A stretch of 64,000 nucleotides of DNA from Pirellulales bacterium (GCA_963733035.1 CAVTBU010000004.1:160001-224000), one strand, 5' to 3'. Shown: positions 32,575 to 52,648, numbered from the stretch's first letter. Notes: a model not told the origin generated them from the letters alone. Program-made: numbers and translations.

Positions 32575-32649
32575 CGGGGCGTGGCGCAGCCTGGCTAGCG
32601 CGCTTGACTGGGGGTCAAGAGGTCGCAGGTTCAAATCCTGTCGCCCCGA
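32575..32649 (+). tRNA. tRNA-Pro(GGG), CCA not encoded
   Basis: Acceptor CGGGGCG/CGCCCCG, anticodon arm CTTGA-CTGGGGG-TCAAG, T arm GCAGG-TTCAAAT-CCTGT. Confidence 0.97.
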
Positions 32650-32760
32650 CTTGTTGTAACTTCAAGTTTCGTAGTCGGTTGCGAGCGTGACTGGCGACCG
32701 GATTTGAACTTTTCTGCGGCGCCTTAGCGCAACCTTTTGGCGGGAAGACATTTCCGACCT

Positions 32761-32976
32761 GCCAGCAGCTTGACGCCCATGTACATCCCGGGGAAGAGCG
32801 TCAAAAGCAGCTTCTACGGTAGCCATCCGAGCCTCTTGGATCTCGACAACGGCAATCTCAAGATGACCACCGACTTCCGCAGCGTCTACGGCACGATGCT
32901 CCAGGAGTGGATGGGGTTCGACAACAACAAGGCCATTTTGAAGGGCGACTACCCAGCGCTCGGCGTGTTTGGTTGA
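32761..32976 (+). pseudogene. C-terminal fragment of a DUF1501-like gene
   Basis: SVK..FYG.HPSL.DLD.GNLK.TTDFRSVY.T.L.EW.G with no N-terminal part. Confidence 0.65.
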
Positions 32977-33224
32977 ATCGTTGAATGGATCGTGGCCAGC
33001 ACACAACGACACAAGGGAACGAGGCGTCAATGGTCCCAAGCCGCATCTTGCTCGGCGTAGTTCTAGTCGGGGTCGCGCAGGCAATATGCATGGTTGCCAG
33101 CGCGGCAGCGTCGGCCGATGTGGACATGGTCGCAGCCCCGCTCGGCCAGAAGCTCGACGAGCTCATGATTTCGGTAATGCTGTCGCAACGTTTCGAGACA
33201 CAGTCGAATTAATCGGCAGTATCG

Positions 33225-34369
33225 CTACTCGGTCGCTTCCAATTCCACGGCAATCGTCACTTCATGGTCGTTGCGAACGAGCGTCAGCTGGGCGCGCTGG
33301 CCAACTTTGTATTTCTCGAAGGCCAGTAGCAAGTCATGCGTGGCATGGACCGGAGTAGCGTCGATCGCAGTGATGACGTCGCCAAGCACGATTTCCCCCG
33401 CGCGGTGCGGCGGGTTGGTCGCAGTCCTGCTGTCGCGGCTGTGCTACCCCGCTTAACATCCAGAACAAGCACCCCGGGTAGTTCCAGGCGTCGGGCAATC
33501 CGGTCGGAAGCTAGTGTCAACGCCAGGCCCGGCCGGATGATCTTGCCGTGTTCGATTAGCTCGGGAACGACCCACCGCACAGTGTCAACCGGGATTGCAA
33601 AGCCGATTCCTGCATAGGTGCCCGAAGGACTGAAGATGGCCGTGTTCACTCCGATCAATCGGCCAGCGCTGTCCAACAGCGGACCGCCGCTATTGCCGGG
33701 GTTGATCGCGGCGTCGGTTTGGATCACGTCCTTGATGGGCAGTCCCGTCAACGACTTGATCTCGCGTCCGAGGGCGCTGACTACACCGGTCGTTAGCGTA
33801 TGGTCAAGCCCGAATGGGTTGCCAATTGCAAAACATTTGAGGCCGACTTCCAGATCGCTTGACGTTCCCAGCGGCAAAGGGTGCAGAGACTCTGCTGGAG
33901 CATCGATCGACAATACCGCCAGATCTTTCTCTGGCGCAACACCGACCAGCTTTGCTCGATAACTCGTTTGGTCGTTGAATGCTACGGCCGCCGAATCTGC
34001 ATCACGAATCACGTGGAAATTCGTTACAACGTGCCCTGCACGATCCCAAACAAATCCGGTTCCGCTCCCACGCGGAGTCTCGTAGGCATCGAGGGAGAAG
34101 AAGTCTCGCTCAATCGCGTGGGTCGTAATATGAACAACAGAGGGCGAGACGCTCTTGAATAGCACCGTAGTGCCCTTTTCATCTTCCGCGATATCGCCGC
34201 GGGGCACCGGAACCGGTGGGTTGGAACTTTCAGGGGGACGGTCAGGGGATTGCGGCCGGAACACAAACCCAACAGCTACGACCACCAGCAGCGCAGCAAC
34301 GGTCGCTAGCAGGACCGAGTTTAAGATAACGAGTCTTTCGACTCGCCGCGCGTGCTCATCGGTATTCAT
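33225..34369 (-). CDS. HtrA/DegP-like protease with PDZ domain, split by a 1-nt deletion near 33397
   Basis: GSGTGFVW, TNFHV, TDAAINPGNSGGPL; corrected frame gives GEIVLGDVITAID to TAG at 33225. Confidence 0.9.
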
Positions 34370-34473
34370 CACACTCAGATCAGCTGTTGCAAGCGGTGCT
34401 CATGGGGCCCAACGCCCCGCGAAGTGCTGGACGTTGGGCATCCCAAGGCGCCGGCACGAGAAGTGTTTAACAG

Positions 34474-35487
34474 TCAGCGCGTCGCCTCCGACTTCTCACT
34501 GGCAGATGTGCGCGTTTCCCGGTGCTCTCGCGAAAACCAATTCGCCACCTGGTTCCAGAACCCGCGGATCTCCTCAGCCGCTGTGGTTTTCCCGATATTG
34601 GCCTGCAGTTTGGTGATGTCGGCTTCGAGCTTTTTAACTTCGTCATCTTCTCGTTCGCCGACGACGCCGCGGTACAGCACTAACTGGTTCTTCGCCTCTT
34701 GGAGGTTGGCTTTGGCGGCCTCGATGCGCTGCTGCTTGATCATTTGCTCGGCAAGTTGCAGCGCCATTTGTGCCGCGACCAGCGGATTGTCCTGCTTGTT
34801 GACGACGTACGAGATCCCGTCCATTTGAGCAAGCTCCAATTGCTGGCGTGCCTCATCAGAATTGTCCGGCAAGGAATGGAGTGCCTTCATCAGCTTGCCC
34901 TCGACGTAATCCAACTCGAGCAGCACCGATGTGTGCAGTAGATCCGCCTCTGCCAGGCGAACCCCTGTTACGTTTGCCGCATCCCGTTTAGCGTCGGTCA
35001 GTGCCTCCACGACCTTCACCGCGACAAGCCCTTCATGGAGAGGAACCCGGTCATCCTGCACGTGGTCAACATCGCGGTACACCTCGTTCCCCTTGGAGTC
35101 TCGGACGATTGTCGTTACCTCCGTGGTTGGCAACAATTCGCGTATGATCTTCACCAGGCTCAGAGCTTCCTCTAGTTGAGACTTGGCGTCTTCCGGCTGG
35201 TCTTGGTCAATATTCTGAGCGGCTTCACTTAGATGCAAGAGAATGCGCGACGACAGCAGTGATGCCTGCCTGAAATCTTCGGGCGAAAGCAATCCTCCTG
35301 GCTTCTGCTCGACGGTGGTCCGGTACTTCGCACCGCTCCCGGTTGTGATCGTGGTCGGCGTGGCGGCCTTCTGCTCCCCGTCTTTGACTTCGTCGCCCAA
35401 CGCAACGGGGGCTGCAAGCATGAGCGAAGTGGCGACCAGCACACTCACCGTCTTGCATCGATTGCGGGCAAGAATGTTGGTCTTCAT
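34474..35487 (-). CDS. Secreted YfdX-like helical protein
   Basis: Signal peptide, GGAGG SD, helical repeats and NPLVAA..AL.LA segment resembling YfdX. Confidence 0.65.
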   Translation of the reverse strand: MKTNILARNRCKTVSVLVATSLMLAAPVALGDEVKDGEQKAATPTTITTGSGAKYRTTVEQKPGGLLSPEDFRQASLLSSRILLHLSEAAQNIDQDQPEDAKSQLEEALSLVKIIRELLPTTEVTTIVRDSKGNEVYRDVDHVQDDRVPLHEGLVAVKVVEALTDAKRDAANVTGVRLAEADLLHTSVLLELDYVEGKLMKALHSLPDNSDEARQQLELAQMDGISYVVNKQDNPLVAAQMALQLAEQMIKQQRIEAAKANLQEAKNQLVLYRGVVGEREDDEVKKLEADITKLQANIGKTTAAEEIRGFWNQVANWFSREHRETRTSASEKSEATR

Positions 35488-35544
35488 GAGTCTACCCTCC
35501 ATCCAAAACCTCGTTAGAAACCAATCATCCAGGTGTCGCCAACT

Positions 35545-35560
35545 TGCAAAGATAATGCCG
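35545..35560 (-). promoter_or_regulatory. Sigma-54 promoter
   Basis: CGGCATTATCTTTGCA, about 58 nt upstream of the YfdX-like start. Confidence 0.6.
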
Positions 35561-35721
35561 AATCGCAGCTGCTGGGGCATGCGGTATTTGGAACGCGCCC
35601 GATGGCCGAAGTCCTGGCCGGCCGGACATTATGACGCTCAACATGCCGGGGATACCCAGTCAATTTGTCATGTGAGACGAAAACTGGCGGTTCGGGCGAG
35701 TGATCGCTGGCGATTCGGAAA

Positions 35722-35737
35722 TGGCACGAGGATTGCA
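35722..35737 (+). promoter_or_regulatory. Sigma-54 promoter
   Basis: TGGCACGAGGATTGCA, full consensus match. Confidence 0.75.
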
Positions 35738-35795
35738 TCTCAATTACCTACATGGTGCTACTTATTGGATCGGTCTAGACTGAGGAGCCGTCCAG

Positions 35796-36221
35796 ATGCC
35801 TGCAACCGCAATCGAGCGGCCCAGTTCCCGACGAACGTCGCAAACAAACTCACGTCGTGCCGACAGGCGAGCGGCACAACGGACTTCGCAATCGCCAAGT
35901 TCCTCTGGCAGACCAGCAAGCAGGCGTTCAGCCTCTGGGCCTGGGCGCAGGTCCATCGCGCATGATCACGTGCCGTCACAAGCCTGGGTAGTAGCGCCGA
36001 GGACCGAAGAGCGGCTCGACACTGCCAGTTACTGGTCCGTGCCCGCCTTGCTCGTTAGTGTTGGTTACATCGTCGGGGCAATCTTGGCGATCCTCTTCGC
36101 GCTCGATCTCGCGATTGGGATGCCATTTTCACGGGCCAGCGTCGTTTTCGATGCCAGCGCGCTGCTATGCGGAACTACGCTGATTTACCTGAGCTGGGAC
36201 GCGTGGGACGCCGTTCGATAA
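35796..36221 (+). CDS. Small membrane protein with Arg/Ser-rich N-terminus
   Basis: GAGGAG SD, upstream sigma-54 motif, two C-terminal TM helices (LDLA..PF.RAS..FD). Confidence 0.65.
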   Translation: MPATAIERPSSRRTSQTNSRRADRRAAQRTSQSPSSSGRPASRRSASGPGRRSIAHDHVPSQAWVVAPRTEERLDTASYWSVPALLVSVGYIVGAILAILFALDLAIGMPFSRASVVFDASALLCGTTLIYLSWDAWDAVR

Positions 36222-36260
36222 CCGTCCACTATGGGACCGTGTATTCCATGATGCTCTTTT

Positions 36261-36698
36261 ATGACTCAACAAGATTCGCATCCTGACACACGCAGCGGCA
36301 CGCCGGCGATCGATAGGAGACAAAGATCAGACGAGCTCGGTCTGGAGCTTTTTCTGCAGCAGCCAGACTCGCAGGAGATGGCACAACTTCCGGTCTCCCG
36401 CGATGACGACGGCAATGTCATCTATCCCGAACTGGATGCGGATGGACACCACGTTCACTTTGAAATGGTCCCCATGCGCGGTGATTCGATGCTGTGGTTG
36501 ACCATTCGCCGGGGCACGGCCCCAGGGCTGGCCGCCACCTCACTGCGAAAGATCGCAGATCTGATCGATCGCCATGGGCTAAAGCTCCTCAACCTTTTCG
36601 AAGGCAATGAGGGTTCGTTTAGTTCCGACGGCGAGGTTGTGTCAGGACCCCTGAGGCTGAAATACGACGACAACGGAGACCTGATTTTCCCGGGATAA
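36261..36698 (+). CDS. Hypothetical acidic protein
   Basis: Co-oriented ORF; DDDGNVIYP / DDNGDLIFP internal repeat. Confidence 0.55.
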   Translation: MTQQDSHPDTRSGTPAIDRRQRSDELGLELFLQQPDSQEMAQLPVSRDDDGNVIYPELDADGHHVHFEMVPMRGDSMLWLTIRRGTAPGLAATSLRKIADLIDRHGLKLLNLFEGNEGSFSSDGEVVSGPLRLKYDDNGDLIFPG

Positions 36699-36756
36699 TT
36701 GTGCTGGACCTGCTCGACGCGAGAAGGAACTTACGATTCCCAGCGGAGGCGGAAAT

Positions 36757-37446
36757 ATGGCCGGAAGCTTGTATTTCACCCTGGGCGTTCACCACGATGC
36801 GACGCAAAAAAGGATTGCCACAGTGTACACCACCGTCATGCGCGATCTCGAAGTCGGCGGCTATGTAAGCACACCGATCCGCGCCGCCCAACGGGCCTTT
36901 TCCGTGCTCGGTCACCCGCCCTCGCGGCGAGTATATGACAATACCTTCGCCGGTATTGTGAACGAAGAAACGAGGGCGACTACACGCGACGAGTCCATCT
37001 TCACCCAACCGGCGCCTTCGCACCGGGCGGATTTAGGGGCTATGTCCCTTGCGCGCTCTTTTCGGACATCGCATCCATCGTTTGAAGAGATATTCGACCG
37101 TCTGTGGAGCAATTTCGCCGCACGGTCCAGGCCGAAAGCCGAGACGACACGCAGCCTGACAGTCGAAATCCCGATAACCAGGGACCAGGCCATGACGGGC
37201 GGCGCAGCTGAGGTGATGGTCCCGGCGCTGGTCGAATGCGGCGTGTGTCGGGGGACCGGCGGTGTTGGCACTTTCCTGTGCGCTCGGTGCGATGGCCGTG
37301 GAGCTGTGGCCGGTGAGTACCCTCTTCGGGTCGCATTCCCGCCAGGACATGCTCAATACACAGTACAAGTGCCTTTGAGTTCGCTCGGCATTCAAAACTT
37401 CTACCTGACCGTGCACTTTCGGATGACTGGCATTCAAGACTTTTGA
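36757..37446 (+). CDS. DnaJ-like protein with degenerate J domain and one zinc finger
   Basis: LY.TLGV..DA...AF.VL..P..R..YD without HPD; CGVCRGTG and CARCDGRG. Confidence 0.75.
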   Translation: MAGSLYFTLGVHHDATQKRIATVYTTVMRDLEVGGYVSTPIRAAQRAFSVLGHPPSRRVYDNTFAGIVNEETRATTRDESIFTQPAPSHRADLGAMSLARSFRTSHPSFEEIFDRLWSNFAARSRPKAETTRSLTVEIPITRDQAMTGGAAEVMVPALVECGVCRGTGGVGTFLCARCDGRGAVAGEYPLRVAFPPGHAQYTVQVPLSSLGIQNFYLTVHFRMTGIQDF

Positions 37447-37477
37447 CATTGCACTCTTCACTGCCGCTGAAGACACC

Positions 37478-38839
37478 TCACGATTCCAGCCGGTATTCCT
37501 GAATCTTCCGCTGCAGCGTCCGCACGCTGATGCCCAGCGAATTGGCCGTTCGCACGCGATGCCCGTCGTATTCCTCAAGTGTCCGCCGGATTGCTTCCTT
37601 CTCCAGCTCCGCAAGAGTCATTCCCGGCTTCAGCACCGCTTGTACTGGGTTCGCTCCGGTGATATGGGGCGGGAGGTCGCCGAGTTCGATGCGATCCTTG
37701 AGGGACAACACGATGATGCTCTCCAGGGTGTTACGCAACTCGCGAACATTGCCAGGCCAGGCGTAGGCGTGGATGGCTTCCAACGCCTCGGGGGTGACGT
37801 CGTGGACCGGTCGGTTATTGTCCTTTGAGATTTGATCGATGAAGTGCCGAACGAGCAGGTCAATATCCTCCCGCCGATCACGCAAGGGAGGCAGCGAGAT
37901 TTCCACCACACGAAGACGGTAAAACAAGTCTTCGCGAAACTGGCCGGCGTCGACCCGCTGCTTCAAGTCGCGATTCGTGGCCGCTACCAATCGCACGTCT
38001 ACTTCGATCTCGCGGGTGCTGCCAACGGGCAATATCCTTTTGTCCTCGATGGCTCGCAGCAGCTTGCTCTGCAATCCGAGCTGCAATTCGCCGATCTCAT
38101 CGATAAACAGCGTCCCTCCCGCGGCAGCCTGAAACAGTCCCTCACGTCGGTTGGTAGCGCCGGTAAATGCGCCCTTCTCGTGGCCGAAGAGCTCCGCCTC
38201 GATGAGTGTCTCTGGAATCGCGGCGCAGTTGACCGGCAGAAACGGCTGATCTCGCCGGTTGCTGTGCTCGTGCACTGCTCGCGCGGCCAGTTCCTTGCCG
38301 GTCCCGCTCTCGCCGACGATCAGCACGGTGGCATTGGTATCCGCGACGAGCTGAATCTTTTCAAATACCTTGCGCATCGCCTCACATTGGCCGATGAGCT
38401 TGCCCAGCGCGCGGCGATTCTTGATTTGAGCGTGCAATCGGGCAATCTCCTCGGCCATCGTCTGCTTTTCGACAGCTTGCCGAATCCGGTGGGTCAATTC
38501 TTCCGGCTTCACCGGCTTGGTCAGATAGTCGAACGCGCCTAGCTGCAAGGCATTGACCGCCGAATCGACGGTTCCATGAGCCGTCACCATGATCACCGCG
38601 GCATGCGGGGCCTCTTGCCGCGAGAACTTCAGTAGCTCCAGTCCGTCGGTGCGTGGCATCTTCAGGTCGGTCACGATCACGTGAATGCCGTCGTGAATGT
38701 GACCCATGGCCTCCTTGCCATCGCGGACCGCGACGACCTCGAACCCTTCCTCGGTGAGCCATTCGCCGATTGCCTCGCGGCTCATCCGGTCGTCATCGAC
38801 CAGCAAAATGCGGTATTTGGATGTGCTGCCGCGCGACAT
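37478..38839 (-). CDS. Sigma-54-dependent response regulator (NtrC family)
   Basis: REC domain, [29 protein letters not shown], Fis-type HTH. Confidence 0.95.
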
Positions 38840-39894
38840 CAGGTTCCTTCTCCGTGGGATTCGCTGAATTGCCGGGCCGCCAGGGCGAGCGGCGCCTCGA
38901 CACGGCGCACGTTGGGAAGTTCGATGGTAAACGACGTGCCTCGGCCAATCTGCGACGAGCAGCCTACCCGTCCGCCCAAATCTTCGATTGTTCGCTGAAC
39001 GATTGCCAGCCCAAGTCCCGTTCCCTCCGACTTCGTGGTGAAATAGCTTTCGAAGACGCGGGGCATGTCCGTTGGCGATATCCCGTCACCCGTGTCGCGC
39101 ACGATGATCTCGACACCCGATCGATTCTCGCGACATGTAATGCTGAGCGTCCCGCCGCTGAGCATTGCCTGACGTGCATTGACGACGAGATTAAGCAAGG
39201 CCCGCTGAAACTTGCGGCGATCGACAAGCAGATGCACGCCTTGCTCCAGTTCGAGTTCGAGGCGAATGTTCGCACGCTCCAAGTCGAGAGCCTCGAACTC
39301 GGTTACGCTCTTGATGAGTTCGGCCGCGTCGAGATCTTCGAGCTCATCCGCTGCCGGACGCGCGTAAGTCAAAAAATCGTTCAAAAGTTCCTCCATCGCC
39401 TGGATTATCTCGTCTAGTTTCTCCACGCGCGTTGACAGAGCGTGATCGTCGCGAGTGGCTTTGCGCAACAGGCCAACGCGCGACTGCAGTGCGTGCAGAT
39501 GGTTGCGCATCTCGTGCGCCAGCCCGCCCGATAAAAGTGCTAGGTCGGCCAAATTCCGCGTTCGCGCTTTGGACGCGCGCTGCTGCCGGTCACCACGAAA
39601 CAACCGCTGGACAAGGTAGATGCCCGCGATGAGCAGTACAAACTGAACAGCGACATTCAACCAGATAGCGTCGAGAATCTGGCCGCGCAGCGTCTCTGGG
39701 CTGACTGTCCCCAACGTGATTGATGTAAAGACGCCAGCACCGGCCAGAACGACGATGCAGAGAATGATGAGCCAGAGCGCGGGACTGGGGAGCTTTTCCA
39801 TAATCTCATCATCAGCGCCCAGCAGAAGTCGGGCATACCGACGATCGGCTGAATGGGCGCAGAACTGCTCTAATCGGCCAATGCTACTCGGCAT
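38839..39894 (-). CDS. Membrane sensor histidine kinase (start 39894 or 39801)
   Basis: Two TM helices, LAHEMRNHL H-box, N/G1/F/G2 boxes. Confidence 0.88.
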   Translation of the reverse strand: MPSSIGRLEQFCAHSADRRYARLLLGADDEIMEKLPSPALWLIILCIVVLAGAGVFTSITLGTVSPETLRGQILDAIWLNVAVQFVLLIAGIYLVQRLFRGDRQQRASKARTRNLADLALLSGGLAHEMRNHLHALQSRVGLLRKATRDDHALSTRVEKLDEIIQAMEELLNDFLTYARPAADELEDLDAAELIKSVTEFEALDLERANIRLELELEQGVHLLVDRRKFQRALLNLVVNARQAMLSGGTLSITCRENRSGVEIIVRDTGDGISPTDMPRVFESYFTTKSEGTGLGLAIVQRTIEDLGGRVGCSSQIGRGTSFTIELPNVRRVEAPLALAARQFSESHGEGT

Positions 39895-40264
39895 ACATAG
39901 TGGCTTTGCGCAAGAAACGCGGGACCGCCGATAGAAGCAGTGTCGCGGAGACCGGCTTCCGCAGGAACCCGGTTGCCCCCATCGCCAGGGCTTGATCGCG
40001 AAACGAAGTGCGCTCTTCAGTGCTGACGACAATGACCGGCGTGTGCGCGTCTCTTCGGCGAAACTCTGCGAGCAGGTGAAGGCCGCTGTAGTCCGGCAGT
40101 TGCACAGCGATGAAGACTAGGGCTGGGGACGCAGACGCGAGGCGATTGCTGCCTTCCTCGGCGCTGGTCGCCGCCCATACGGAATAGCCATCGTTAGTTA
40201 GGGCTTGAGTAGCCGTGTTGAGCCACTCCTGGTCGTCGTCAATGATGGCTATTTCATCAGTCAT
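39884..40264 (-). CDS. Single-domain response regulator, atypical (Ala at the phospho-Asp position)
   Basis: IIDDD, LVFIAVQLP in place of ..LD..LP, KP; AGGAG SD. Confidence 0.8.
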   Translation of the reverse strand: MTDEIAIIDDDQEWLNTATQALTNDGYSVWAATSAEEGSNRLASASPALVFIAVQLPDYSGLHLLAEFRRRDAHTPVIVVSTEERTSFRDQALAMGATGFLRKPVSATLLLSAVPRFLRKATMYAE

Positions 40265-40349
40265 CGAGGCCGATCTCCTGCGCGGCCGCGTCGTCGACAC
40301 GTTGGCCTTTAGGGTCGGTAGTAGTAGAAACCCAACGCCCCACCGCTTG

Positions 40350-40365
40350 AGCGAATCCGGTGCCA
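40350..40365 (-). promoter_or_regulatory. Sigma-54 promoter of the RR-HK-NtrC operon
   Basis: TGGCACCGGATTCGCT. Confidence 0.65.
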
Positions 40366-40530
40366 ACTCGGTTTTGAAGCCTGGAACCATGGGCGTTTCG
40401 ACGCCGAATCCGTAGCAGTGACATTCTGGCCGACGTCCCGTCGGCTTGCAGGCGACAATTTGGCCGGTTTCTTGCATGGGTTTGGTCCCGGCAACTTGCG
40501 GATCGAACCCATAGCGGGATCGTGCGTAAC

Positions 40531-40546
40531 GGGAACAAGTTTTGCT
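40531..40546 (+). promoter_or_regulatory. Possible sigma-54 promoter
   Basis: GGGAACAAGTTTTGCT (GG-N10-GC) upstream of the CheB/CheR hybrid. Confidence 0.45.
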
Positions 40547-40666
40547 ATGCCCCCTAAAGCAACCTTTTGCACACGGAATACGATCACGCATTTTTAGGAA
40601 TCGCAATTCAGCTAGCACGTTTTCGAGACGAAGGAGTCCGACTCACCTCTGCCGAGGGCAGCGATC

Positions 40667-43600: not shown

Positions 43601-44725
43601 GCCCAAAAGAAAGCGGAAGCAGAAGCGCGGGAGGCAGCCAGGCGTCGGGATCAGTTTCTCGCCATGTTGTCGCACGAGCTGCGAAATCCCCTGGGAGCCA
43701 TGCTCAATGCGACCCGACTGTTTAGCCACGCTGGCAATGACGCTGAAGCTCGCCAGCGGGCATGCGCGGCGATCGAGCGCCAGTCGAAGCAAATTGCTCG
43801 CCTGCTGGACGATTTGTTGGATGTCGCGCGGGTCACACAAGGAAGAATCCACATTCGAGAAGAAGTCGTGGACCTGTGCACGCTAGCGCGCGAGGCGATT
43901 CAGGTGATGCAGCCTCAGATCGATGGCTCCCAGCACAAGCTTGTGCTGGACGTTCCAGATCAGCCCATCTACGTCGTGGGCGATTCCGCGAGGTTGCTTC
44001 AAGTCCAAGAGAATCTGTTGGCCAATGCGACGAAGTATACACCTGCTTGTGGCGAGATTTGCGTTTCCATTCGTCAAGAAGATGGCGAAGCAGTGCTGAA
44101 CGTGAAGGACAATGGCGTCGGCATCGACCCCGAGATGCAGGAGAAGATCTTCGATCTCTTCGTTCAAGCGCCGAAAACGCTTGAAAGTGCGGACGCCGGC
44201 ATGGGTATTGGACTGACGATGGTGCAAACGATCGTTAAGCTGCATGGCGGGCGGGTCGTTGTGCGTAGCGAAGGCGTCGGCAAAGGGAGCGAATTTGAGG
44301 TTCGCTTGCCATTGACGGAAAGGCGACCGGTCGAATCTGATACCGGCCTGCCTGCTCAGGCTGACCACCTCCGTGTTTTAATCGTCGAGGACAATTCCGA
44401 CAGCCGCGAATTACTCAAGTCACTGCTACGAATCGATGGCTATGAAGTATCCGCAGCTCCCGACGGCTTGCAAGGCTATGAGGCGATTATTAAGGAGCGG
44501 CCCGATGTCGCACTTGTTGATATCAATCTTCCCGGGATTGATGGATACGAAATCGCCAGAAGAATCAGGGCCGATCAGGCGCATCGGTCGGTTCGCCTCG
44601 TGGCGCTGACAGGATACGGGCGGTCGGTGGACCGCGACGCGGTCTTTGCAGCGGGCTTCGATGAGCACCTTGTGAAGCCTGTTGCTCCGGAGGATCTAGA
44701 GCGCGCGCTACGCAAGCCCCGATAA
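40667..44725 (+). CDS. CheB-CheR-coiled coil-PAS-histidine kinase-REC hybrid
   Basis: GASAGG/QHL/GSDG (CheB), [10 protein letters not shown] and CRNLLIY (CheR), NEELQ repeats, [11 protein letters not shown]. Confidence 0.93.
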
Positions 44726-44748
44726 TCTTGATCGCCCTTCAAGAAGTA

Positions 44749-44791
44749 GGGGGCGAGAGCCGCAGCGATATCCGCTGCTGGTCTCGCCCCC
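44749..44791. terminator. Strong hairpin between convergent genes
   Basis: GGGGGCGAGA/TCTCGCCCCC outer stem plus GCAGCG/CGCTGC inner stem. Confidence 0.55.
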
Positions 44792-44898
44792 AATAGCACG
44801 CTCAGGGCCGTTCCTTGCGGTTTCTTTCCTGTCCGTGGATGTCCGATCTGTGACCGGTCCGCTGGCATCGGTCGATGCCGACCCTGTTCGTGAGCTTC

Positions 44899-45672
44899 TC
44901 AGGCCGCTGTTGTTTCAGCCACGAACTCGTTGTGGATTGCGTCGACCAATTGCTCTGGATCAACCGGTTTCCGGAACCAGCGGTCAACCCCCTGAGGGCC
45001 GATCGTCACCTCGGCATCGGCCTGCTCAGTTCCCGTTACGGCGAAGATTCTTAGGGACTGATAGTCTGGGTTTTGGCGGATCGCTGAGACGGTCTGCCGG
45101 CCGTCGAATCTGGGCATCTTCATGTCCAGCAAGACGACATCGGGGCGATCGTTTGCGGACAGATGCACCATGGCCTGTAGTCCATCGATTGCCGTGTCGA
45201 CATGAAAGCCGCTGAGACGCAAATAGCCCGCCAGCAGCTCGCTTTCGTTGACGTCGTCTTCCACGAGCAATGCCCGACGCACTTTGCCGCCAGTTGTCGA
45301 GAGAGACGCGTCTGTTGATCCGCAAAACTCCTCCTCGAGCGATTTCAGCTCGTTGAAGATCTTGAAGATCGTCGGCTCAGAGTCGTCTGCTTGACCCGCC
45401 TCCAACATCCGCTGCAATAGCCGTAGACCGAGGGTGGCCTTCTGCAGCCGGTTGCGCACGGAATGTGTGAAGCGGTCGCTCTTGGCCGCCTGGTTTGCGT
45501 CCGCCGCACGGGTAGAGTCGCTGCCGACAAGTTCGTCTCGCAACACGGCGATATCTTTGGGGGCCTCGATGCCCAATCGCACCTTGTTGCCGACTACGCG
45601 CAGAATCTCAACCGTAATTCCAAGGGTGGGGAAAACGACCTTGTCGTTGCGTCCCCGAGAAAGAACAAGCAT
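44899..45672 (-). CDS. CsrA domain fused to a receiver domain
   Basis: MLVLSR...VRLGIEAP..I.VLR.EL then LLVEDD...LLDMKMP...KP; GGAGG SD. Confidence 0.88.
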   Translation of the reverse strand: MLVLSRGRNDKVVFPTLGITVEILRVVGNKVRLGIEAPKDIAVLRDELVGSDSTRAADANQAAKSDRFTHSVRNRLQKATLGLRLLQRMLEAGQADDSEPTIFKIFNELKSLEEEFCGSTDASLSTTGGKVRRALLVEDDVNESELLAGYLRLSGFHVDTAIDGLQAMVHLSANDRPDVVLLDMKMPRFDGRQTVSAIRQNPDYQSLRIFAVTGTEQADAEVTIGPQGVDRWFRKPVDPEQLVDAIHNEFVAETTAA

Positions 45673-46015
45673 GGGTGGGCCTCCATTCCCGCCGAGCCGT
45701 CGGCCGCCACTTGTGGCCTTACTGCAAATCGACGCGCTCTGGTGCGGTGAAGTCGTCTGACACGCCGGCCAAGGCCGCTGATCCAGGTCAGTCGCCGAAT
45801 AAAATGACTTTCGACGCTGTTCCAAGCGGCAGTCGCCAGCCCGACTTCCTTGTCGAGGCATCCACGTGGAGGTCCGTTCCACGCTGACCCGCAGGGTCAG
45901 GATCGATTTTTTTACGTTGCACCTGCGATCTGATCAAGACCGCTTTCCGATGAATCGAGGAGACGCTAGCAAGGCTTTCGGAATCAGCTTTGGCTCCAAA
46001 GCAATCCGTCGAAGG

Positions 46016-46195
46016 TCACATCACTCCTAGCCCGTGGAATAAGATCGCGAACGCGTGCAAGATGAGACCGATGAAGGCGACTGCCCCGAGTAGCACGAAC
46101 GGGAGGGCCAGTCCGACAGAAGTCAGCATCACCACCGATGCCGTGAGCCAAACGACGTGCCAAACACTCGACAGCGAGGCCGGCTGCGACTCCAA
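46016..46195 (-). CDS. Possible small membrane protein (37-59 aa), absent from the ORF track
   Basis: Hydrophobic frame VWHVVWLTASVVMLTSVGLALPFVLLGAVAFIGLILHAFAILFHGLGVM*; TTG 46195 or ATG 46129. Confidence 0.35.
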   Translation of the reverse strand: MESQPASLSSVWHVVWLTASVVMLTSVGLALPFVLLGAVAFIGLILHAFAILFHGLGVM

Positions 46196-46357
46196 TTCGT
46201 TCAGTCTGCCAACCCTGACCTGTAAAGGCCATCGGGCCGACAGCGACCCAGGGTATCACCCCGGCAGTGACAATTTGGCTTGGCCATACATGCCAAAATG
46301 ACACGCCATTGTCGCCAATCGCCTCTGGAAGACGGCAAGTCTTTGCAAAGAACCGGC

Positions 46358-46373
46358 GGGCACGGCAGTTGCT
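46358..46373 (+). promoter_or_regulatory. Sigma-54 promoter
   Basis: GGGCACGGCAGTTGCT, 50 nt before the HPF-like gene. Confidence 0.65.
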
Positions 46374-46422
46374 GTCTATCGCAATGTCAAGTCAGCAGGC
46401 CGCTCAAGGTGGGAACCGTACG

Positions 46423-47410
46423 ATGAAAACACAATGGGTATTCAATAATTGCGGTCGGGATAAACGGAAGGCACAGGCATACTGGGAAAAGAAGGCGCAC
46501 CGGCTAAATCGCCTAATGTCAAACTACCGCCCTGAGCTGCGCCGCATTCGTTTGACGGTGTACCGCCACGATGCACGGGACGAGTGGGAGATGCGCGGCG
46601 TCGTGCACCTGCCCACCGGTACCCTTGTCTCGGAGGAGACCTGTGCGACGTTGCACGAATGCATCGACAAGGTGGCCGACGAGTTGGCGCGTGAGATCCG
46701 CCGGCACAAGAGTAAGGTAAGAAAAGATCATCTCTATCGTCGCCGGCGTCGGCGGCGTCAACAGCTGTCGGCCGCGGGCCCGTACCTAGCGCAAGATGCC
46801 TCAGACGGGCGAAAGGATGCCTTCGTGGCGATGTTGTTACCGTTGATGGATCAAGTTTGCGACCATGCTCGACGCGAGCTGCGGATCCTCGTGCACGATG
46901 GAACGCTTCCCAAGGGGGAATGGTACGCGCGCGACCTGGTCGATGATGTCCTGGTCCGCGCATGCGAATCGTTTGGCGAACGGCCGAACGACGTATCGCT
47001 CGACGTGTGGCGGATCGAACTACTCCACCAGCGCTTGCAGGAACTGTGTCAGCAGATTGAACCTGTATCGCTTGCCGCGTCGTCCTCTCGGTCACGAGCC
47101 ATTGACAACGACGACAACGAGGATCTGGACGATATCCAATATTGGCGGGAACTTCTGCTGGAACCGCCCGAGGAATTGTCGTTGGAGGAGTTGCTGCCAG
47201 ACGATGATGTGGGGGACATGTGGGACGAATTGTCCGCACAAGAACAACGCGACGGGTTGAAACGGCTTCTGTGGAAGCTACCCAAGCATCAGAGACAAGC
47301 TCTGATGCTGCACGACGCGCAGGATACTGGATCGTCACGAAAGCAACGTCGAGAACGACATTGAAGCAGCGCGCAGTAGGCTGAGAACCGAATTGACTGC
47401 GACCATTTGA
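46423..47410 (+). CDS. HPF/RaiA-like domain fused to sigma-70-like regions; frameshifting deletion near 47322
   Basis: HPF-like N-terminus (LPTGTL.SE...IDKVADEL.REIRRHK); LPKHQRQALML then out-of-frame ILDRHESNVENDIEAARSRLR. Confidence 0.7.
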
Positions 47411-47470
47411 TTAGCCGCGCTGTATCGATGTTCCGCTGGCACAATGCAATCTGCAACGTGGGATCAATTC

Positions 47471-47971
47471 CTAGTCTCCGACACCAATGTCAACTTGGAT
47501 TGCTTCATAGATCAGGTCCGTCTCCCGTGACTGAAAGTGCCGCAACGCAGTCAGCAGCCATGCAAGTCGTTGGCGAACGTCGGAGACGTCGGAGGAACCA
47601 TCGGGCACGCTCGACGACGAGAACTCCGTTCGCAGTGAACCGATCTGACGGACCAGGTCATCGTATTGGCGTCGCAACTGCTGGACGCGATTCTCAAGCC
47701 TGGGGGCCTCATTCAGAATGTCCGCCAACAGGCCCTCTTCGCCGCTCAAGTCGGCGGACTGCCTTTGCATCGTCTTGCCCAGTACGTCCAGCGCCTTGAC
47801 CACGGCCGTACGCCATGCTGATTCACGGTGCGGAGCCGGTTTTGCCAACGCGGATTCCAACACATGCATGGCCTTTAGCATAAGCTGACGCGTTAGCTGG
47901 CTGGCATCAACGGCCTGATCGCGTCGTGATTGATCGATTCGAGTGGATTTGCCTGGGGATGTGTGGCTCAT
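47471..47971 (-). CDS. Hemerythrin-like four-helix protein
   Basis: AGGAG SD; APRL..V..L..QY..L and LRHFQSRETDLIYEA..VDIG.GD; several His ligands appear replaced. Confidence 0.6.
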   Translation of the reverse strand: MSHTSPGKSTRIDQSRRDQAVDASQLTRQLMLKAMHVLESALAKPAPHRESAWRTAVVKALDVLGKTMQRQSADLSGEEGLLADILNEAPRLENRVQQLRRQYDDLVRQIGSLRTEFSSSSVPDGSSDVSDVRQRLAWLLTALRHFQSRETDLIYEAIQVDIGVGD

Positions 47972-48039
47972 GCGCGATCTCCTGCTGATTTGCTTACTCT
48001 CCTTTGATGCGTGTCTTGCCACTTGTCCTACGGAGTCCA

Positions 48040-48055
48040 TGCAAAGCTAGTGCCA
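48040..48055 (-). promoter_or_regulatory. Sigma-54 promoter
   Basis: TGGCACTAGCTTTGCA. Confidence 0.75.
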
Positions 48056-48774
48056 TTGCATAATGAAAACTATCGCGAGGCCCCCCGGCACAACAAAGCT
48101 GCCGACACGACTCTTGACGGCGCCAGTTTGATGGTTAGCAACGGTTTGGTAGTGGCCGAAATCTCCACCGCCGCAACGCGCCCAGACATCTCTGCGTCGA
48201 AGCAACGGACTGAGCAGCGAACGACTCAGACAGCCGCGGGGCGGAACACTGCTCGGCCGCCGGAGATTCCGATCTCCCTGTCAAATTGGCGTCTCAATTG
48301 CCACTATTGCCGCCCTGCTGGCGTCAGACTGTCGCACTCTCGCAGTGGAAGAACTCCCAGCAAGCGTTGGCACGCATGTTGTACAAGCGGATTCCGCGCA
48401 ACGGGTTCCAAGACGCGCGCCGCTGGTCGCTTTGTTCGGTGCATGGGATCTATCATGACGACGCGTACGGTGAATCCGAATACCCTCATCGAGGTCATCC
48501 GCGCGTTGCTGCATCGTTTTCGTCCCGCGATCCAACATGGTGTACACAATGAGCGGACAGAGCGATGGTCCCAAAATGGATTCCTCGTCCAAGCAAATGG
48601 CGCGGTTGGCGGCGATCGGCGAACAAGTCGCGTTGGCGGAAAATAAAGGACGACTGGCGTGCCGGGCCACGGCCAAATACCGAGGACCTAGAAGTAGCGG
48701 TGATCAGTCTTGTGGGCGCACAAGTCTTTGGCTGATATGAAGAAGGGATGTCGACCAGCCTCGGACGCCGGCCA

Positions 48775-48809
48775 GAAAAAGTTCTAACCGTGTCCAGTCG
48801 CCCCGATTT
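48775..48809 (+). repeat. att-like site 1 (tRNA-Pro 3' copy)
   Basis: AAAAAGTTCTAACCGTGTCCAGTCGCCCCGA; 15/17 match to 32636-32652. Confidence 0.8.
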
Positions 48810-48824
48810 TGACGAGACAGAAGG

Positions 48825-48855
48825 CCCTTCGGCAAAAATGTCGAAGGGTTTTTTT
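48825..48855 (+). terminator. Intrinsic terminator directly after att site 1
   Basis: CCCTTCGGCA-AAAA-TGTCGAAGGG followed by T7. Confidence 0.75.
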
Positions 48856-49087
48856 CTTTGGTGGGTCGGTAGTTACGTAACGATGACACAGGGTTCAAAT
48901 CGGCCGCTCGGTCAAGTGGGTTTTCTGCGGCTCGCTGATCTAAACCAATAGCCAGTCATCACTTTGTGTGGTTCAAAAACCGGTAGCGTGCGTCGGACCG
49001 GAGCGGGATGTAGTCAGACGCTTGCGAACAAAGGTCACGCCCTCATGTGCATGAACTTGCTTCCGGTTTCCGGCGTGCAGCGACCCT

Positions 49088-49330
49088 CGGTGGTAACCAG
49101 AATGCCTTTGCGCCAGGGAATCTCGGACGATACAGCCATTCTCCAGTAACGGCATCCAAGCACGTGAAGATGCCGCCATCTCATCTGGCAATGTAGACGT
49201 ATCCGTCGTAAAGCAAGGGGATGCCAATACCGGCCCGTTCTGTCGCGTATTCCAAACCAGGCTACTCTTGGCTGAATCACTTCTCGACCATTGATTCCGC
49301 CCAAGTCTCCAGCCCTCTTCGGCAAGAAGT
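49088..49330 (-). pseudogene. Decayed PQQ-like beta-propeller fragment
   Basis: LVWNTRQNGPVLASP / LLYDGYVYIAR*DGGIFTCLDAVTGEWLYRPRFPGAKAFW across a frameshift and a stop. Confidence 0.6.
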
Positions 49331-49455
49331 TCGTTGGTGCATGACTTCGCTGGAACTTTCTCGGCAAGCGACTCAGATTTCTTCCAGCAATCGCACGAAG
49401 TGAGTTACAAATCGGGCCTGCTCCGCGGCTGATCCCGACCGGAACAAAGCGGACG

Positions 49456-51780
49456 CTACCGGCGGCGCTTCTGGGTGGCGACGATGGGACGGCGCTCGAG
49501 TTTGTCGAGAATTTCCATGAACCGAGGTCGGTTGCGGTACTTTTCGCGAATATCTTTGACGAGTTCGATCCAGAAGTCGTCGCGATCGAGCGACTGCATG
49601 ATCGGCCGCATCTTGCGGAGGCAGGTGGCGACGGACTCGTAGGCGCCTTGATTGGCTTGCGGGAGATGCGCTTCGAGCTCAAGGTGGTAAACCTCTAACG
49701 CTCGCTCGGGATGAGACTTGGCCACGGCGGCCGCGACGCGAGAGGCGAGCCCCGCAGCGGAGTTCCAAGCCATCGCTCGGGAGGCACCACCTGACCTCGA
49801 CTTATCGTTGGCGACAATCGTGTCGAACCACCGGAGCGCTTGATCTGGTCTTTTCTCAGCGATAGCGAGGTCGACAAGAACGTCGAGGTACTTCCGCTGG
49901 CGATCATAGGGACTAGGCGGGCGAAGGAAGGCGGCGGCGAGGTAGTCGGGTAGCGGTAACGGCCAGCCGTCTTCGCAGATGAACCGAAGAGTTGGCGACG
50001 TCGAAGGCGCAGCGAACCCCTGCTTCGCGGATCTTGCTCGTTTCTTCTTCAACGCCGACGTTGCCGCTTGGGCAGGCGCGGTCTGGCAACGGATGGGGGC
50101 AATTCCCGTTTCCAGGAACTGTTCGGCGCGGCGGCGCACCGAGGTTCCGCATTTGGCCTTCTCGGCGGCGCCCACCAGATCCTGGAACGACTTGACATTG
50201 GGATTGCGAAAGAACTCGCACGCGGCTCGTGCCGCAACGACGTCCCATTGCTTGCGGCTGCGGGCCAGATCGACAAGCTTATCGGCCAGATGGGAAGCGA
50301 TGCCCGGGAGTTTCTCGTAGGTATGTTCAATCCCCTCCCGGGCCCAGTGCTCGGCGTCGTCGAAACGCTTGAGCTGCATCAAGTGATTGACCAGCCGTTC
50401 GTAACTGCCGGTGCGTCGGACCTCCGCTTCGTAAAGCGGGAGGACCTCGTCGTCTCGGCCCGCCTGTTCGAGGGAGTGAACGAGCCAATCGCTGAGCGAG
50501 TCGCGGCGATAATTGCGGCTCCAACCATCGAGACCATCGCCCACATTCCTGCTGTCTTCAGCGTTCTTATGCTCCTTCGACGAGGGATCGAGTCGGGCGG
50601 CCAGCGTGTCGGCGACCGCGGACCAGTCGGCACTCGACCATCGCGCGTCGAGAATACTTGCGGCCGACTCACCGATGTAATCCCACTGGTCGAGCTCGCA
50701 AGCGTCGATCGCGTAGAGAATCTTCTCGGCCGGCGACAGCGACGAAACAGCGACGGCGGCGAAGACGACGGGGAAGCACTCAGCCAAGGCCATGCCGGTC
50801 TCGCCTTCGTCATGCGACTGACCGACTTGGCTCATGCCACGCTCGAAGAGTTCTCGGCCCAATTCGACGACCGCGTCGGCATGACCGAGTTCGGCAAGGC
50901 GTTCAAAGCGGTGTTTGAGCCGGCTGTAGTCAGGCGTGTGGCCGTCGTGCTGCCAATGGTTCTGCCAGCCAATTTCGGACGTGACTGAGCGGAGCTCCTT
51001 GCGAGCCTCGCCAATCAGCCGGGCAGCGTCCCCTTCGCCGAGGAGGATGCGTTCCTGGAACTCCTGGCGGATCTCGGGAAAGCGATTGACGAGCTCAACT
51101 ACACATTTCGCCAATTCGGCGGCGGACTTCTTCTCAATGTCGGCCTGGATGAGGGCGTCCCATTCGGCGCGCGAACGACGGGGCGTTTTGGCCGTGGAGT
51201 TGGGGCTCTTGGATTTCCCGCCGGGACTACGTGTGCCTCGGCGAGAAGTTCTCATGGATGAGATTCGGGCAGACCGCGACGAGTCTTCATCATCCTCGTC
51301 CCAGTAGTCGTCGGTCTCGTCGTCGTAAAACTGTTCTTCCTCTTCGTACTCGTCAGCCGAGGACTCCGCGAGACGAGCCCAACGGGAATCGTCGGCCGCG
51401 GCCGCGGGGGGCGACTTACCGTCGGCAATTTGAGCAAGATACTCGGCGATCACGGCGACCGCGTGCTTGCACTGACTGCCAACCGGGCAGGTGCAGATTC
51501 CTACGATTTGGCCGCGAGACTTCTTCTTCGCTTCGAGATGCGCCGAAGTGACGTAACGGCGCGTCCCCTGGACTGCCGCAAGCAGCCGACCATCGCTGGA
51601 AACGGCCAAGTTTCTCACTTGGCCGCTCCGCTGGTATGAGCGCCCGCGTTGAACGCTGCGGCTGCCGAAAGCCTGGTCGAGATCGTCCCACGTGAGCTTG
51701 GCCCAGGCGGCTGCATGGGGAATCGCTGCAACGGCGTGTGGCTGGTCCAGGCGTGAAGCGGACGTTTTCTTGCGCGGCAT
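49456..51780 (-). CDS. SWIM zinc-finger protein with helical-repeat C-terminus
   Basis: RGRSY...G.V, CTCPVGSQCKHAVAV, acidic linker, YRNRPRFMEILD. Confidence 0.85.
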   Translation of the reverse strand: MPRKKTSASRLDQPHAVAAIPHAAAWAKLTWDDLDQAFGSRSVQRGRSYQRSGQVRNLAVSSDGRLLAAVQGTRRYVTSAHLEAKKKSRGQIVGICTCPVGSQCKHAVAVIAEYLAQIADGKSPPAAAADDSRWARLAESSADEYEEEEQFYDDETDDYWDEDDEDSSRSARISSMRTSRRGTRSPGGKSKSPNSTAKTPRRSRAEWDALIQADIEKKSAAELAKCVVELVNRFPEIRQEFQERILLGEGDAARLIGEARKELRSVTSEIGWQNHWQHDGHTPDYSRLKHRFERLAELGHADAVVELGRELFERGMSQVGQSHDEGETGMALAECFPVVFAAVAVSSLSPAEKILYAIDACELDQWDYIGESAASILDARWSSADWSAVADTLAARLDPSSKEHKNAEDSRNVGDGLDGWSRNYRRDSLSDWLVHSLEQAGRDDEVLPLYEAEVRRTGSYERLVNHLMQLKRFDDAEHWAREGIEHTYEKLPGIASHLADKLVDLARSRKQWDVVAARAACEFFRNPNVKSFQDLVGAAEKAKCGTSVRRRAEQFLETGIAPIRCQTAPAQAATSALKKKRARSAKQGFAAPSTSPTLRFICEDGWPLPLPDYLAAAFLRPPSPYDRQRKYLDVLVDLAIAEKRPDQALRWFDTIVANDKSRSGGASRAMAWNSAAGLASRVAAAVAKSHPERALEVYHLELEAHLPQANQGAYESVATCLRKMRPIMQSLDRDDFWIELVKDIREKYRNRPRFMEILDKLERRPIVATQKRRR

Positions 51781-52389
51781 GAAGAGTAAGTCTGCGTGAG
51801 TAGCGGGGCTGTTCGAACAGATTATCATAAGGGTGTTTGTGCAGAGCGTCGATCGCCTGGGCGACGACCGGTTGTGCGAAAAATCGCACGACTTACGAGG
51901 CGAGCTATAGTACCTTGGTTGATCCAAGATCCGGCCGACATGCCGTTCCGAAGAGGTGGCAACTGGCGCAGGTAAGGGATGCGGCATTCAAAGTCCTGGC
52001 TCACAAGACAGCAGGTTCTCGAATGGCAACGCCTTCTGCCGCGCGTTTGAGTGCTTCGGTCGGCCGGACCGACCGTTATTCGAGGGCGCTCAATGCCGCG
52101 GCGGGTACATCGTCCGGCCGCACTTCGAAATTGTGGCGCGGCGCAGAGGTGGAAAGCATCGACCGCTGCGAGACGTGTAGTCACCTTTGATGGCGATTAG
52201 CGACCTGGGACGGGCCGCGTTCGTGACCAATGACGGACCGACCTGGGCCAAGAACACGCAAGTATCCGACCTACCTGCTGGCTCACGCCTCTGGTCATCG
52301 CTGCTGGCGGCCAGCCACCGCGTCGGATTCCCCCAGAACTCGTTGTCCGGAATGGATTAAGCTGTTGGGCCATGTCTTGAGGGCATTCG

Positions 52390-52423
52390 AAAAAAGTTCA
52401 ATAGCCGTCCAGTTGCCCCGACT
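52390..52423 (+). repeat. att-like site 2 (tRNA-Pro 3' copy)
   Basis: AAAAAAGTTCAATAGCCGTCCAGTTGCCCCGACT aligns without gaps to att site 1. Confidence 0.75.
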
Positions 52424-52627
52424 AGAGTTACGACAAATACCTATCCGTTGCTAGTTCCACTAACCAGCCTCCGTGTGGCTGATTTCTTCCTCGCGGACTC
52501 TGCGTTGCGCCAAGGGCGTGCATGTCGTCTGGCGCCGTTTGGCGAGTCCGAAGCGCGTTGCACTTGACGACTTAGCGTCTCACGCCGATGGCGCTATCTC
52601 GACGCTGCTGGCCGGTAAAATCCTGTG

Positions 52628-52648
52628 CGCTTGACACTTTGTCAAGCG
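52628..52648. repeat. Perfect 9-bp inverted repeat
   Basis: CGCTTGACA-CTT-TGTCAAGCG. Confidence 0.8.

Follow-up and report, generated by a model that had tools for sequence, protein, structure and literature searches.

Staphylococcal cassette chromosome (SCC) elements are inserted at the 3′ end of rlmH/orfX by Ccr serine recombinases, whose genes are not known to span their own att site, and they form tandem and composite arrays, recombinase-less cassettes included, that are bounded by repeats of the sequence at which they insert. Among tyrosine recombinases, integration changes the C-terminal end of the integrase in Mx8 and splits the integrase gene in SSV1. Here we describe a locus that shares a trait with each of these, in a 64,000-nucleotide stretch from a Pirellulales bacterium (GCA_963733035.1 CAVTBU010000004.1:160001-224000; this whole stretch is called the window, and positions without a contig name are counted from its first letter). 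The window is C4:160001-224000 of the source genome (G000; 6.6 Mb in 10 contigs) and holds a proline tRNA gene followed by two copies of its 3′ end, sites 1 and 2. Both sites are very probably displaced 3′ ends of large serine recombinase (LSR) genes, from integrative elements spread across the Planctomycetota whose host attachment site (attB) is the tRNA-Pro 3′ end and whose own attachment site (attP) falls within the final ∼40 codons of the LSR gene. As in SCC, a serine recombinase would act at the 3′ end of a conserved gene; unlike SCC, the target is not a protein gene, and the host phylum and the recombinase clade differ.

The canonical LSRs of the A118/LI, Bxb1 and phiC31 type, as treated in the available text of Rutherford et al. 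(2013; PMC3783163), resemble the enzymes described here in having Resolvase, Recombinase and Zn_ribbon_recom domains, a motif that lies 5 bp further out in the element site than in the host site, and a short common core. For LI integrase that text puts the zinc-ribbon-domain (ZD) motif at positions 11-19 in attB and 16-24 in attP, in agreement with the rule of a motif 5 bp further out in attP, which an earlier reading of the window by a model from the sequence alone (the sequence-only reading) had given as established. According to the same text, canonical LSRs react only attP × attB pairs, and not attP with attL. The present elements differ from the canonical ones in that the host site is a tRNA gene, attP lies within the recombinase's own coding end, integration clips ∼25-40 residues from the enzyme, the shared core is 14 bp long, and the right half-sites look unspecific; their arrays also contain junctions of a tail with an LSR stump, which canonical attP × attL exclusion forbids.

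Islands made by tyrosine integrases, as described in the available text of the Islander survey (Hudson, Lau and Williams, 2015; PMC4383910), are likewise bounded by a tRNA gene and a 3′ fragment of it in direct orientation, leave the tRNA intact and form tandem arrays at one tRNA. Here, however, the enzyme family is another one, with the LSR gene found in homologous elements (locus L057, genome G001 and 24 of 30 loci; see below), and the displaced fragment is 14 nt of tRNA fused to recombinase codons. The same text names Mx8 intP and SSV1 int as integrases that extend across attP. The elements described here resemble these two in that the integrase frame crosses attP, but the enzyme is a serine recombinase and its new stop codon comes from the T loop of the tRNA.

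According to the available text of the Islander survey, tRNA genes are not a known target of serine integrases. The corresponding text of an M. abscessus prophage study places serine integrases in open reading frames (ORFs) and tyrosine integrases at tRNA genes; that of a large LSR discovery paper contains no occurrence of ‘tRNA’, and that of a 2026 paper by the Islander group makes no connection between serine integrases and tRNA genes. A literature search found no report of a tRNA-targeting LSR clade, although supplements and the TIGER database could hold cases. While LSR elements themselves are known, LSR integrative elements with a tRNA target and attP inside the gene appear to be new.

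Displaced tRNA ends and recombinase coding sequence

ARAGORN calls a single tRNA in the window, tRNA-Pro(GGG) at 32575-32650, and the 14 nt that close it have two further copies in the same orientation, at 48793-48806 and 52408-52421. The junction reads GTTCAAA-TCCTGTCGCCCCGA in the tRNA, GTTCTAA-CCGTG-TCCAGTCGCCCCGA at site 1 and GTTCAAT-AGCCG-TCCAGTTGCCCCGA at site 2, so that GTTC and TCC are 3 nt apart in the tRNA and 8 nt apart in both copies, an offset of exactly 5 bp. Direct reading and a pattern scan thus agree with the sequence-only reading, which had drawn attention to a repeated tRNA-end motif with an exact 5-bp outward shift. The 6.6-Mb genome as a whole has six instances of the shifted form (C4: 208793, 212408, 250361; C6: 952868, 955425, 961132), the unshifted tRNA-like form is that of the tRNA-Pro genes and of five tRNA-Pro 3′ fragments on C4, and a scan with free spacing returned GTTC-to-TCC spacings of 3 and 8 only. 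The tRNA, the sites and their flanks lie in the window as follows.

32575..32650, plus strand: tRNA-Pro(GGG), called by ARAGORN
32628-32649: attB-type left half-site, made up of the T-arm and the 3′ strand of the acceptor, GGTTCAAATCCTGTCGCCCCGA; GTTC and TCC are separated by 3 nt
32650..32720, plus strand: X-type flank, a hairpin and then a T run
48704..48805, minus strand: P-type arm of site 1, by translation an LSR C-terminal tail relic RGDWTRLELFLAGVRGWSTSLLHISQRLVRPQD with its stop; the shifted motif AAAAAGTTC-N8-TCC lies inside it
48793..48806, plus strand: core 14-mer of site 1, TCCAGTCGCCCCGA, common with the tRNA 3′ end
48807..48868, minus strand: degenerate LSR codons 5′ of the site 1 core, ..KNPSTFLPKGLLSRQN
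52295..52420, minus strand: P-type arm of site 2, by translation an LSR tail relic RGNWTAIELFSNALKTWPNSLIHSGQRVLGESDAVAGRQQR with its stop
52408..52421, plus strand: core 14-mer of site 2, TCCAGTTGCCCCGA
52422..52651, plus strand: Y-type right flank of site 2, not LSR sequence

The identity of the arms emerges from the strand opposite the tRNA. Variation in the 8 nt between GTTC and TCC falls mostly at third codon positions, and all 28 variants of this octamer encode T-[P/A/R]-[I/L/V]. The 108 unique sites read ..S-RGD[R/W]T[P/A/R][I/L/V]ELF.., with a stop 24-43 codons on in 84 of them. At one site (L057:7981-9852, minus strand) the frame is open for 608 codons upstream and belongs to an ORF of 624 aa that encodes an LSR, with the domains Resolvase, Recombinase and Zn_ribbon_recom and the C-terminal end ..SRGDRTAIELFVAGMRA and stop; a second locus (L119) has the same arrangement of LSR and site, cut by the contig end. 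A protein search with the C-terminal 81 aa returned 139 of 174 candidates at E<=1e-3, mostly LSRs of 498-500 aa. Eleven of these proteins were examined for their C-terminal ends: P0007, P0098 and P0005 end in ..SRGDRI, while P0011, P0003 and P0064 (about 485-524 aa) carry the ..ELF.. tail. The frame of P0041 crosses an entire tRNA-Pro, the T loop of which lacks a stop codon, P0012, P0079 and P0086 have other tails after SRGD (e.g. ..MFTEPTIAISSRDLKVA), and the remaining protein ends earlier. The end SRGDRI is what a frame entering GGTTCAAATCCTGTCGCCCCGA from downstream produces, with the T loop supplying TGA as the stop.

Both window sites fit this pattern. On the minus strand the site 1 core gives the codons S-RGD-W within the full translation ..KNPSTFLPKGLLSRQN-RGDWTRLELFLAGVRGWSTSLLHISQRLVRPQD and stop, which is 40% identical over 48 aa to the C-terminal end of LSR P0003 (BLASTP, E=2e-9); where site 1 has its stump, intact LSRs read ..KRKPFDVLAEGL....S. 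Because it holds a tail and also a decayed pre-core stump, site 1 appears to be an attP-like remnant with both halves, P and P′, from which the LSR body has been deleted. The translation of site 2, which begins SRGNWTAIELFSNALKTWPNSLIHSGQ.. and runs to a stop, is 52% identical to P0003 over 27 aa (E=2e-7).

A tRNA-like end that in many cases precedes a hairpin and a T run could also be taken for a structured RNA, a member of a tRNA-like gene family or a chance repeat, but we give this hardly any credence. The degenerate pattern TCCWGTYGCCCCGA, which matches the window three times (32636, 48793 and 52408, all on the plus strand), has no match in 100 dinucleotide shuffles, and ARAGORN calls no tRNA gene at site 1 or site 2. 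The hairpin after many sites is the LSR codon run ..KRKPFDVLAEGL.. (KPFDVLAEG). The best Rfam match in window positions 48500-52600 has E=9.5, and nothing at E<=1 appears in L002 and L003, the stretches with the other array junctions; with these results and 0 pairs found by RNAalifold on 27 arms, a structured RNA was rejected as a candidate. An integron was rejected as well, in that the arrays examined have no tyrosine recombinase nearby and the arms no conserved fold, a dedicated IntI model not having been run.

Elements at tRNA-Pro and the geometry of their sites

With the 499-aa LSR P0007 as query, 48 of 251 Pirellulales genomes gave a match at E<=1e-60. The source genome, with a best tblastn identity of 35-37%, is not among them, and both window sites are therefore relics and not parts of a member element; a cognate recombinase, for which the sequence-only reading proposed searching the genome, is not found there in the form of an LSR of the relevant clade. 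The best 30 LSR loci span one clade at >=64% identity and another at 33-39%. In 24 of them the LSR 3′ end overlaps a tRNA-Pro called by ARAGORN (GGG, CGG or TGG) and ends in its T loop, in four it adjoins a tRNA-Pro-like 3′ sequence that ARAGORN does not call, and one locus has the free (attP) form. In the last (L195) an LSR homologue adjoins tRNA-Ser; this homologue and the LSRs with other tails may be variants with other site forms or targets.

A complete element of 20.3 kb is present in G001, which belongs to the same genus as the source, in the order tRNA-Pro, LSR, cargo, tail site. Behind its tRNA-Pro(GGG) (C6:34783-34858) stands an LSR with Resolvase, Recombinase and Zn_ribbon_recom domains that ends ..KSRGDRI; the cargo includes a ParA-like ATPase, an SNF2/HsdR-like helicase, a Schlafen-AlbA2 protein, a reverse transcriptase and a tyrosine recombinase; and the tail site (..SRGDKTPIELF..) closes the far end at C6:14493. 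A 469-aa tyrosine integrase directly behind this tail site opens the next island. In G003 an LSR lies at a tRNA-Pro(CGG) fragment (C4:293314), with tail sites at 66 kb and then after a further 12.5 and 5.4 kb. The sequence-only reading had proposed serine-integrase sites from the motif shift, and this part of it has gained support from the BLASTP matches of both arms to LSR tails, the continuous frame into the intact LSR of L057, the 24 loci with an LSR against tRNA-Pro and the complete element of G001.

Since the LSR frame reads through the shared 14-mer into the tail, attP falls within the LSR's own 3′ end. At the level of sequence comparison, attP is shown to overlap the last ∼40 codons of the LSR, integration swapping the tail for isoleucine and a stop and leaving the tail at attR. 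In the free form, the LSR frame would run across the 14-mer that it has in common with the tRNA (codons S-RGD-R/W-T) and on into a tail of ∼30 codons. Integration would set the LSR body against the tRNA, where the frame would enter the tRNA and meet a stop at the T-loop TGA (..SRGDRI and stop), while the clipped tail would be left at the far element end as attR. The source genome would since have lost the LSR bodies and retained the tails at 48704-48806 and 52295-52421 and the stump at 48807-48868, relics that would bound two integrase-less blocks in an 89-kb accretion that also has tyrosine-integrase junctions.

An 8-nt gap between GTTC and TCC is found in every tail site, a spacing that for most of them was preset by the search patterns. 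Past the motif ARGTTCWAW there are 10 nt (TCCTGTCGCC) in the tRNA and 15 nt in the tail site, distances that would put the centre, where the crossover would take place, at the CCCC in the 3′ strand of the acceptor. By eye this candidate centre lies inside a small palindrome, GTCG-CCC-CGAC, that includes the first base past the tRNA. Positions 8-14 of the 14-mer are nearly invariant and positions 3, 4 and 7 vary among sites, a pattern that fits a crossover to the right of the variable positions. AAAGTTC would then be the zinc-ribbon-domain motif at attP distance, with GGTTC at attB distance, and a shift of the zinc-ribbon motif is a plausible cause of the 5-bp offset. It is possible, though we doubt it, that the sites are LSR relics in which the offset merely follows from the tail codons and a chance likeness to the T loop. 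GTTC does fall within the conserved codons I-E-L-F (ATT GAA CTT TTT), the right half-sites have no clear mirrored motif and heterogeneous flanks (145 sites), and the geometry was compared with a single solved system, LI integrase. Yet among 22 tail sites from outside the motif-selected pattern, 21 use GAA for E and 17 use CTT for L, while neighbouring codons vary freely. Such near-fixed synonymous positions beside varying ones, in a genome of 60% G+C, point to constraint on AAGTTC at the DNA level. The offset, moreover, is exactly 5 bp and the distance from motif to presumed centre 10 bp in the tRNA, matching the 11-19 versus 16-24 of LI.

What follows the sites on the right is heterogeneous: among 145 right flanks, 18 continue the LSR codons, 8 are of type W, 7 of type Z, 6 of type X and 4 of type Y, and 102 are other. 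This suggests, from sequence comparison, that the right half of the host site carries little weight. An unspecific right half would allow tandem accretion, and would explain both the stacking of elements behind one tRNA and a tail sitting directly on an LSR stump. The tail sites could instead belong to an integron-like cassette platform, in which they would be working recombination sites for recombinase-less cassettes served by a single LSR in trans, with the tRNA-Pro 3′ end as fixed acceptor. On that account the tRNA-Pro 3′ end would be an attB-type left half and the cassette ends attP-type left halves, the right halves would be irrelevant, and the B × P reaction would both insert and excise with no directionality factor, the clipping of the enzyme's own tail on integration acting as the switch. 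We consider this unlikely.

Window blocks within an 89-kb array

The cargo of the two blocks, from Pfam and ORF analysis, is as follows.

33284..48040: cargo of the first block, with no recombinase; includes unnamed ORFs besides those below
33284-34372, minus strand: trypsin-like protease
34474-35580, minus strand: YfdX-like protein
37478-38839, minus strand: sigma54-type response regulator
38839-40032, minus strand: histidine kinase
40667-44725, plus strand: CheB-CheR-PAS-HK-REC hybrid, 1352 aa
44899-45882, minus strand: CsrA-REC fusion, a single ORF
49456..51987, minus strand: 843-aa ORF, the cargo of the second block, with no Pfam match and a CxC..CxH motif seen by eye only

The second block (48807-52421) has a stump at one end and a tail at the other, and can be read as both ends of a decayed LSR element around the single 843-aa ORF. 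The first (32651-48806) has a tail at its end and an X-type hairpin at its start, so that its left part seems to have been remodelled and it does not form a clean LSR element. Of the two successive insertions envisaged by the sequence-only reading, the part that has support is a serine-recombinase origin of both sites; two insertions in plain succession are a simplification, given a first island that lacks an LSR-type left end. In the X-type hairpin a T-loop/acceptor-like motif is present twice, once direct and once inverted. The X-type flank shares 86% identity with the sequence behind the tRNA fragment at C4:247557 (C4:247557-247624) and is also found directly after tRNA-Pro genes and tail sites in other genomes of several orders; it may be a native terminator, a B′ half-site or an arm of another element. 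The Y-type flank has 80% identity, over 244 bp, with the sequence behind a tRNA-Pro fragment at C4:265747-265988.

The array does not end near 52.4 kb, where the sequence-only reading had closed the island block. Unshifted tRNA-Pro 3′ fragments follow on C4: three 45-nt halves that start at the anticodon loop (247515, 265719 and 277114) and have a common left arm of ∼130 bp, one that starts at the T stem (281659) and one that is inverted (229462); ARAGORN calls none of the five as a gene. By these positions the junctions extend from the tRNA to C4:281680, ∼89 kb away. PF00589 has 16 matches in the genome and PF00239 seven, of which none falls in C4:190-300 kb and the nearest to the array lies at C4:36-46 kb; the window islands thus hold no tyrosine integrase gene. 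Among 63 ORFs in C4:191-292 kb, Pfam searches identified neither recombinase nor phage or conjugation genes, but regulators, a protease, giant surface proteins, a kinase-WD40 protein, a SUKH protein and several small metabolic gene sets. The sequence-only reading was therefore right that no intact integrase remains.

Tyrosine integrases have also used this tRNA, and the shifted sites themselves might be att sites of such enzymes, since lost, with a subsite at the junction of T and acceptor stems and the left arm as P arm. In the available text of the Islander survey (PMC4383910) tyrosine integrases are the only ones on record at tRNA genes, and a T/acceptor-junction subsite exists. The array itself includes the three 45-nt halves with their common arm, the arm at C4:281585-281677 is 93% identical to a site at C5:33673-33765 beside a tyrosine integrase, and tyrosine integrases lie directly at tRNA-Pro(GGG) in G002 and G003. 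We nevertheless hold this reading to be very improbable. The shifted sites have LSR coding sequence as their arm and not a non-coding P arm, which already contradicts it for both window sites and for which a tyrosine att site with a conserved P arm was dropped as a candidate; Pfam finds no recombinase, and hence no tyrosine integrase, among 79 ORFs beside the examined arrays; PF00589 has no match within ∼50 kb of the arrays mapped in G001, G003, G009, G014 and G016; and it is an LSR that adjoins tRNA-Pro in the 24 loci above. LSR relics and tyrosine-type junctions at the same tRNA instead mark a hot spot common to both enzyme families.

The C5 site consists of an attP-like P arm and a T-stem-to-acceptor core of tRNA-Pro, ∼65 bp from the 3′ end of the tyrosine integrase, and C5:33-106 kb contains three tyrosine and two serine recombinase genes. 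On C6, a second array with three tail sites (C6:951365-961145) follows a degenerate T-loop-type tRNA-Pro fragment and has no tRNA gene nearby; homologues of its genes stand immediately behind tRNA-Pro(GGG) in G014, which suggests, on gene content, that the array was moved. Elsewhere on C6, ∼44 tRNA genes occupy 27 kb (C6:241456-268483) in what looks like a tRNA-array island or prophage, and a tyrosine-integrase match (C6:277356-277850) stands beside tRNA-Glu.

The linkage of pyrF with tRNA-Pro is kept in G002, G003, G013 and G014. The sequence-only reading had looked to relatives for an empty site joining 32649 to about 52422, and none was seen: behind the tRNA there are 34 kb of unrelated DNA in G003, a tyrosine integrase in G002 and other genes in G013 and G014, and in G001 pyrF adjoins genes that the source genome has at C4:355-383 kb, with no tRNA there. 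One metagenome contig (run X2) joins window position 52421 to 32689 with 30 other letters between; this is probably a junction of tail site and X flank from a related organism and not a circle junction of the source genome.

Several points weigh against the sites being LSR ends left by tandem integration. No recombination was observed: the public sequencing runs with the region are available as contigs only, with a share of at most 0.20, and the four aligned to 32550-52549 yield scattered pieces that bridge neither site. Tandem accretion would require a hypothetical relaxation of attP × attL exclusion. Of the imperfect dyad symmetry around a central dinucleotide that is expected in LSR sites (∼40-50 bp), GTCG-CCC-CGAC gives a weak form, with GAAAC, also by eye, on the right in the LSR-coding flank at roughly attB distance; the codons GAA-CTT-TTT belong to a conserved peptide as well, and the 22 sites used to judge them are related to one another and to the other sites. 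A search for attR in eight other genomes found no tail site within 40 kb of the junction of tRNA and LSR, with a second tail-like site 6.3 kb away in G096, which leaves most attR partners unseen and implies that the elements are large or their far ends lost. The first block begins with the X-type hairpin and not with LSR codons. Part of its cargo also stands behind tRNA-Pro in another genus, G013, where the CheBR hybrid kinase and the CsrA-REC fusion have adjacent homologues ∼9 kb behind tRNA-Pro(GGG). Finally, the G+C of the blocks (0.56-0.62) does not differ from that of the genome (0.60).

Both blocks are most likely fixed relics, since the genome has no cognate LSR, the tRNA no LSR-type attL, and the second block is flanked by two sites of the same type. 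Mobilization of the blocks in trans is possible.

Spread, cargo and significance

Of 33 genomes from the family of the source, 12 match the pattern AGTTC-N8-TCCWGYYGCCCCGA, at 26 sites in all, against 0 for the reversed control. A slightly longer pattern occurs in at least 123 stretches of a species-level genome collection, where nearly all of the matches listed are from the Planctomycetota, in several orders, and the arm to the left of the 14-mer is conserved over ∼100 nt. Viral contigs gave a single match to the site pattern, and thus no sign of a phage carrier. Arrays lie on one strand behind tRNA-Pro: at least 13 of 80 loci have a site 0.6-6 kb downstream of a tRNA-Pro, and some have four to six sites at 0.4-3.5 kb spacing.

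The DNA between sites carries recognizable functions. In G003, 12.5 kb between two tail sites (L044; G003:C4:214843-227312) hold a mercury-resistance operon with genes for MerR, MerT-like, MerC and mercuric-reductase-like proteins and a heavy-metal P-type ATPase. In G001, 9.9 kb between two tail sites behind tRNA-Pro(CGG) (L048; G001:C13:2302-12168) include Cas3, Cas_GSU0054 and Cas_GSU0053, and so carry a CRISPR-Cas module as island cargo. Array cargo also includes a Schlafen-helicase, TOTE-type defence genes, and an extracytoplasmic function (ECF) sigma factor with a kinase. Element ends could not be drawn from identical copies, as L042 and L043, and likewise L040 and L041 (99.7% up to the contig ends), are identical throughout and show no boundary. 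L042 (G013:C128) and L043 (G016:C86), from different genera, are 99.98% identical over 20 kb, which could reflect a recent transfer or the cross-binning of one organism's contig.

With matches in 48 of the 251 Pirellulales genomes, this LSR clade very probably targets tRNA genes across at least one order, and its tail relics extend across the Planctomycetota. Island finders that need a tyrosine integrase will miss such elements, whose cargo includes mercury-resistance, CRISPR-Cas and defence genes. The elements may supply new integrases that have a tRNA as universal landing site, and the natural attB/attP pair, with its one-sided, clean 5-bp shift, would serve as a compact test bed for the zinc-ribbon positioning model. 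An attP in the coding end of the enzyme would also mean that each integration brings a built-in change of the recombinase, a testable route to directionality control.

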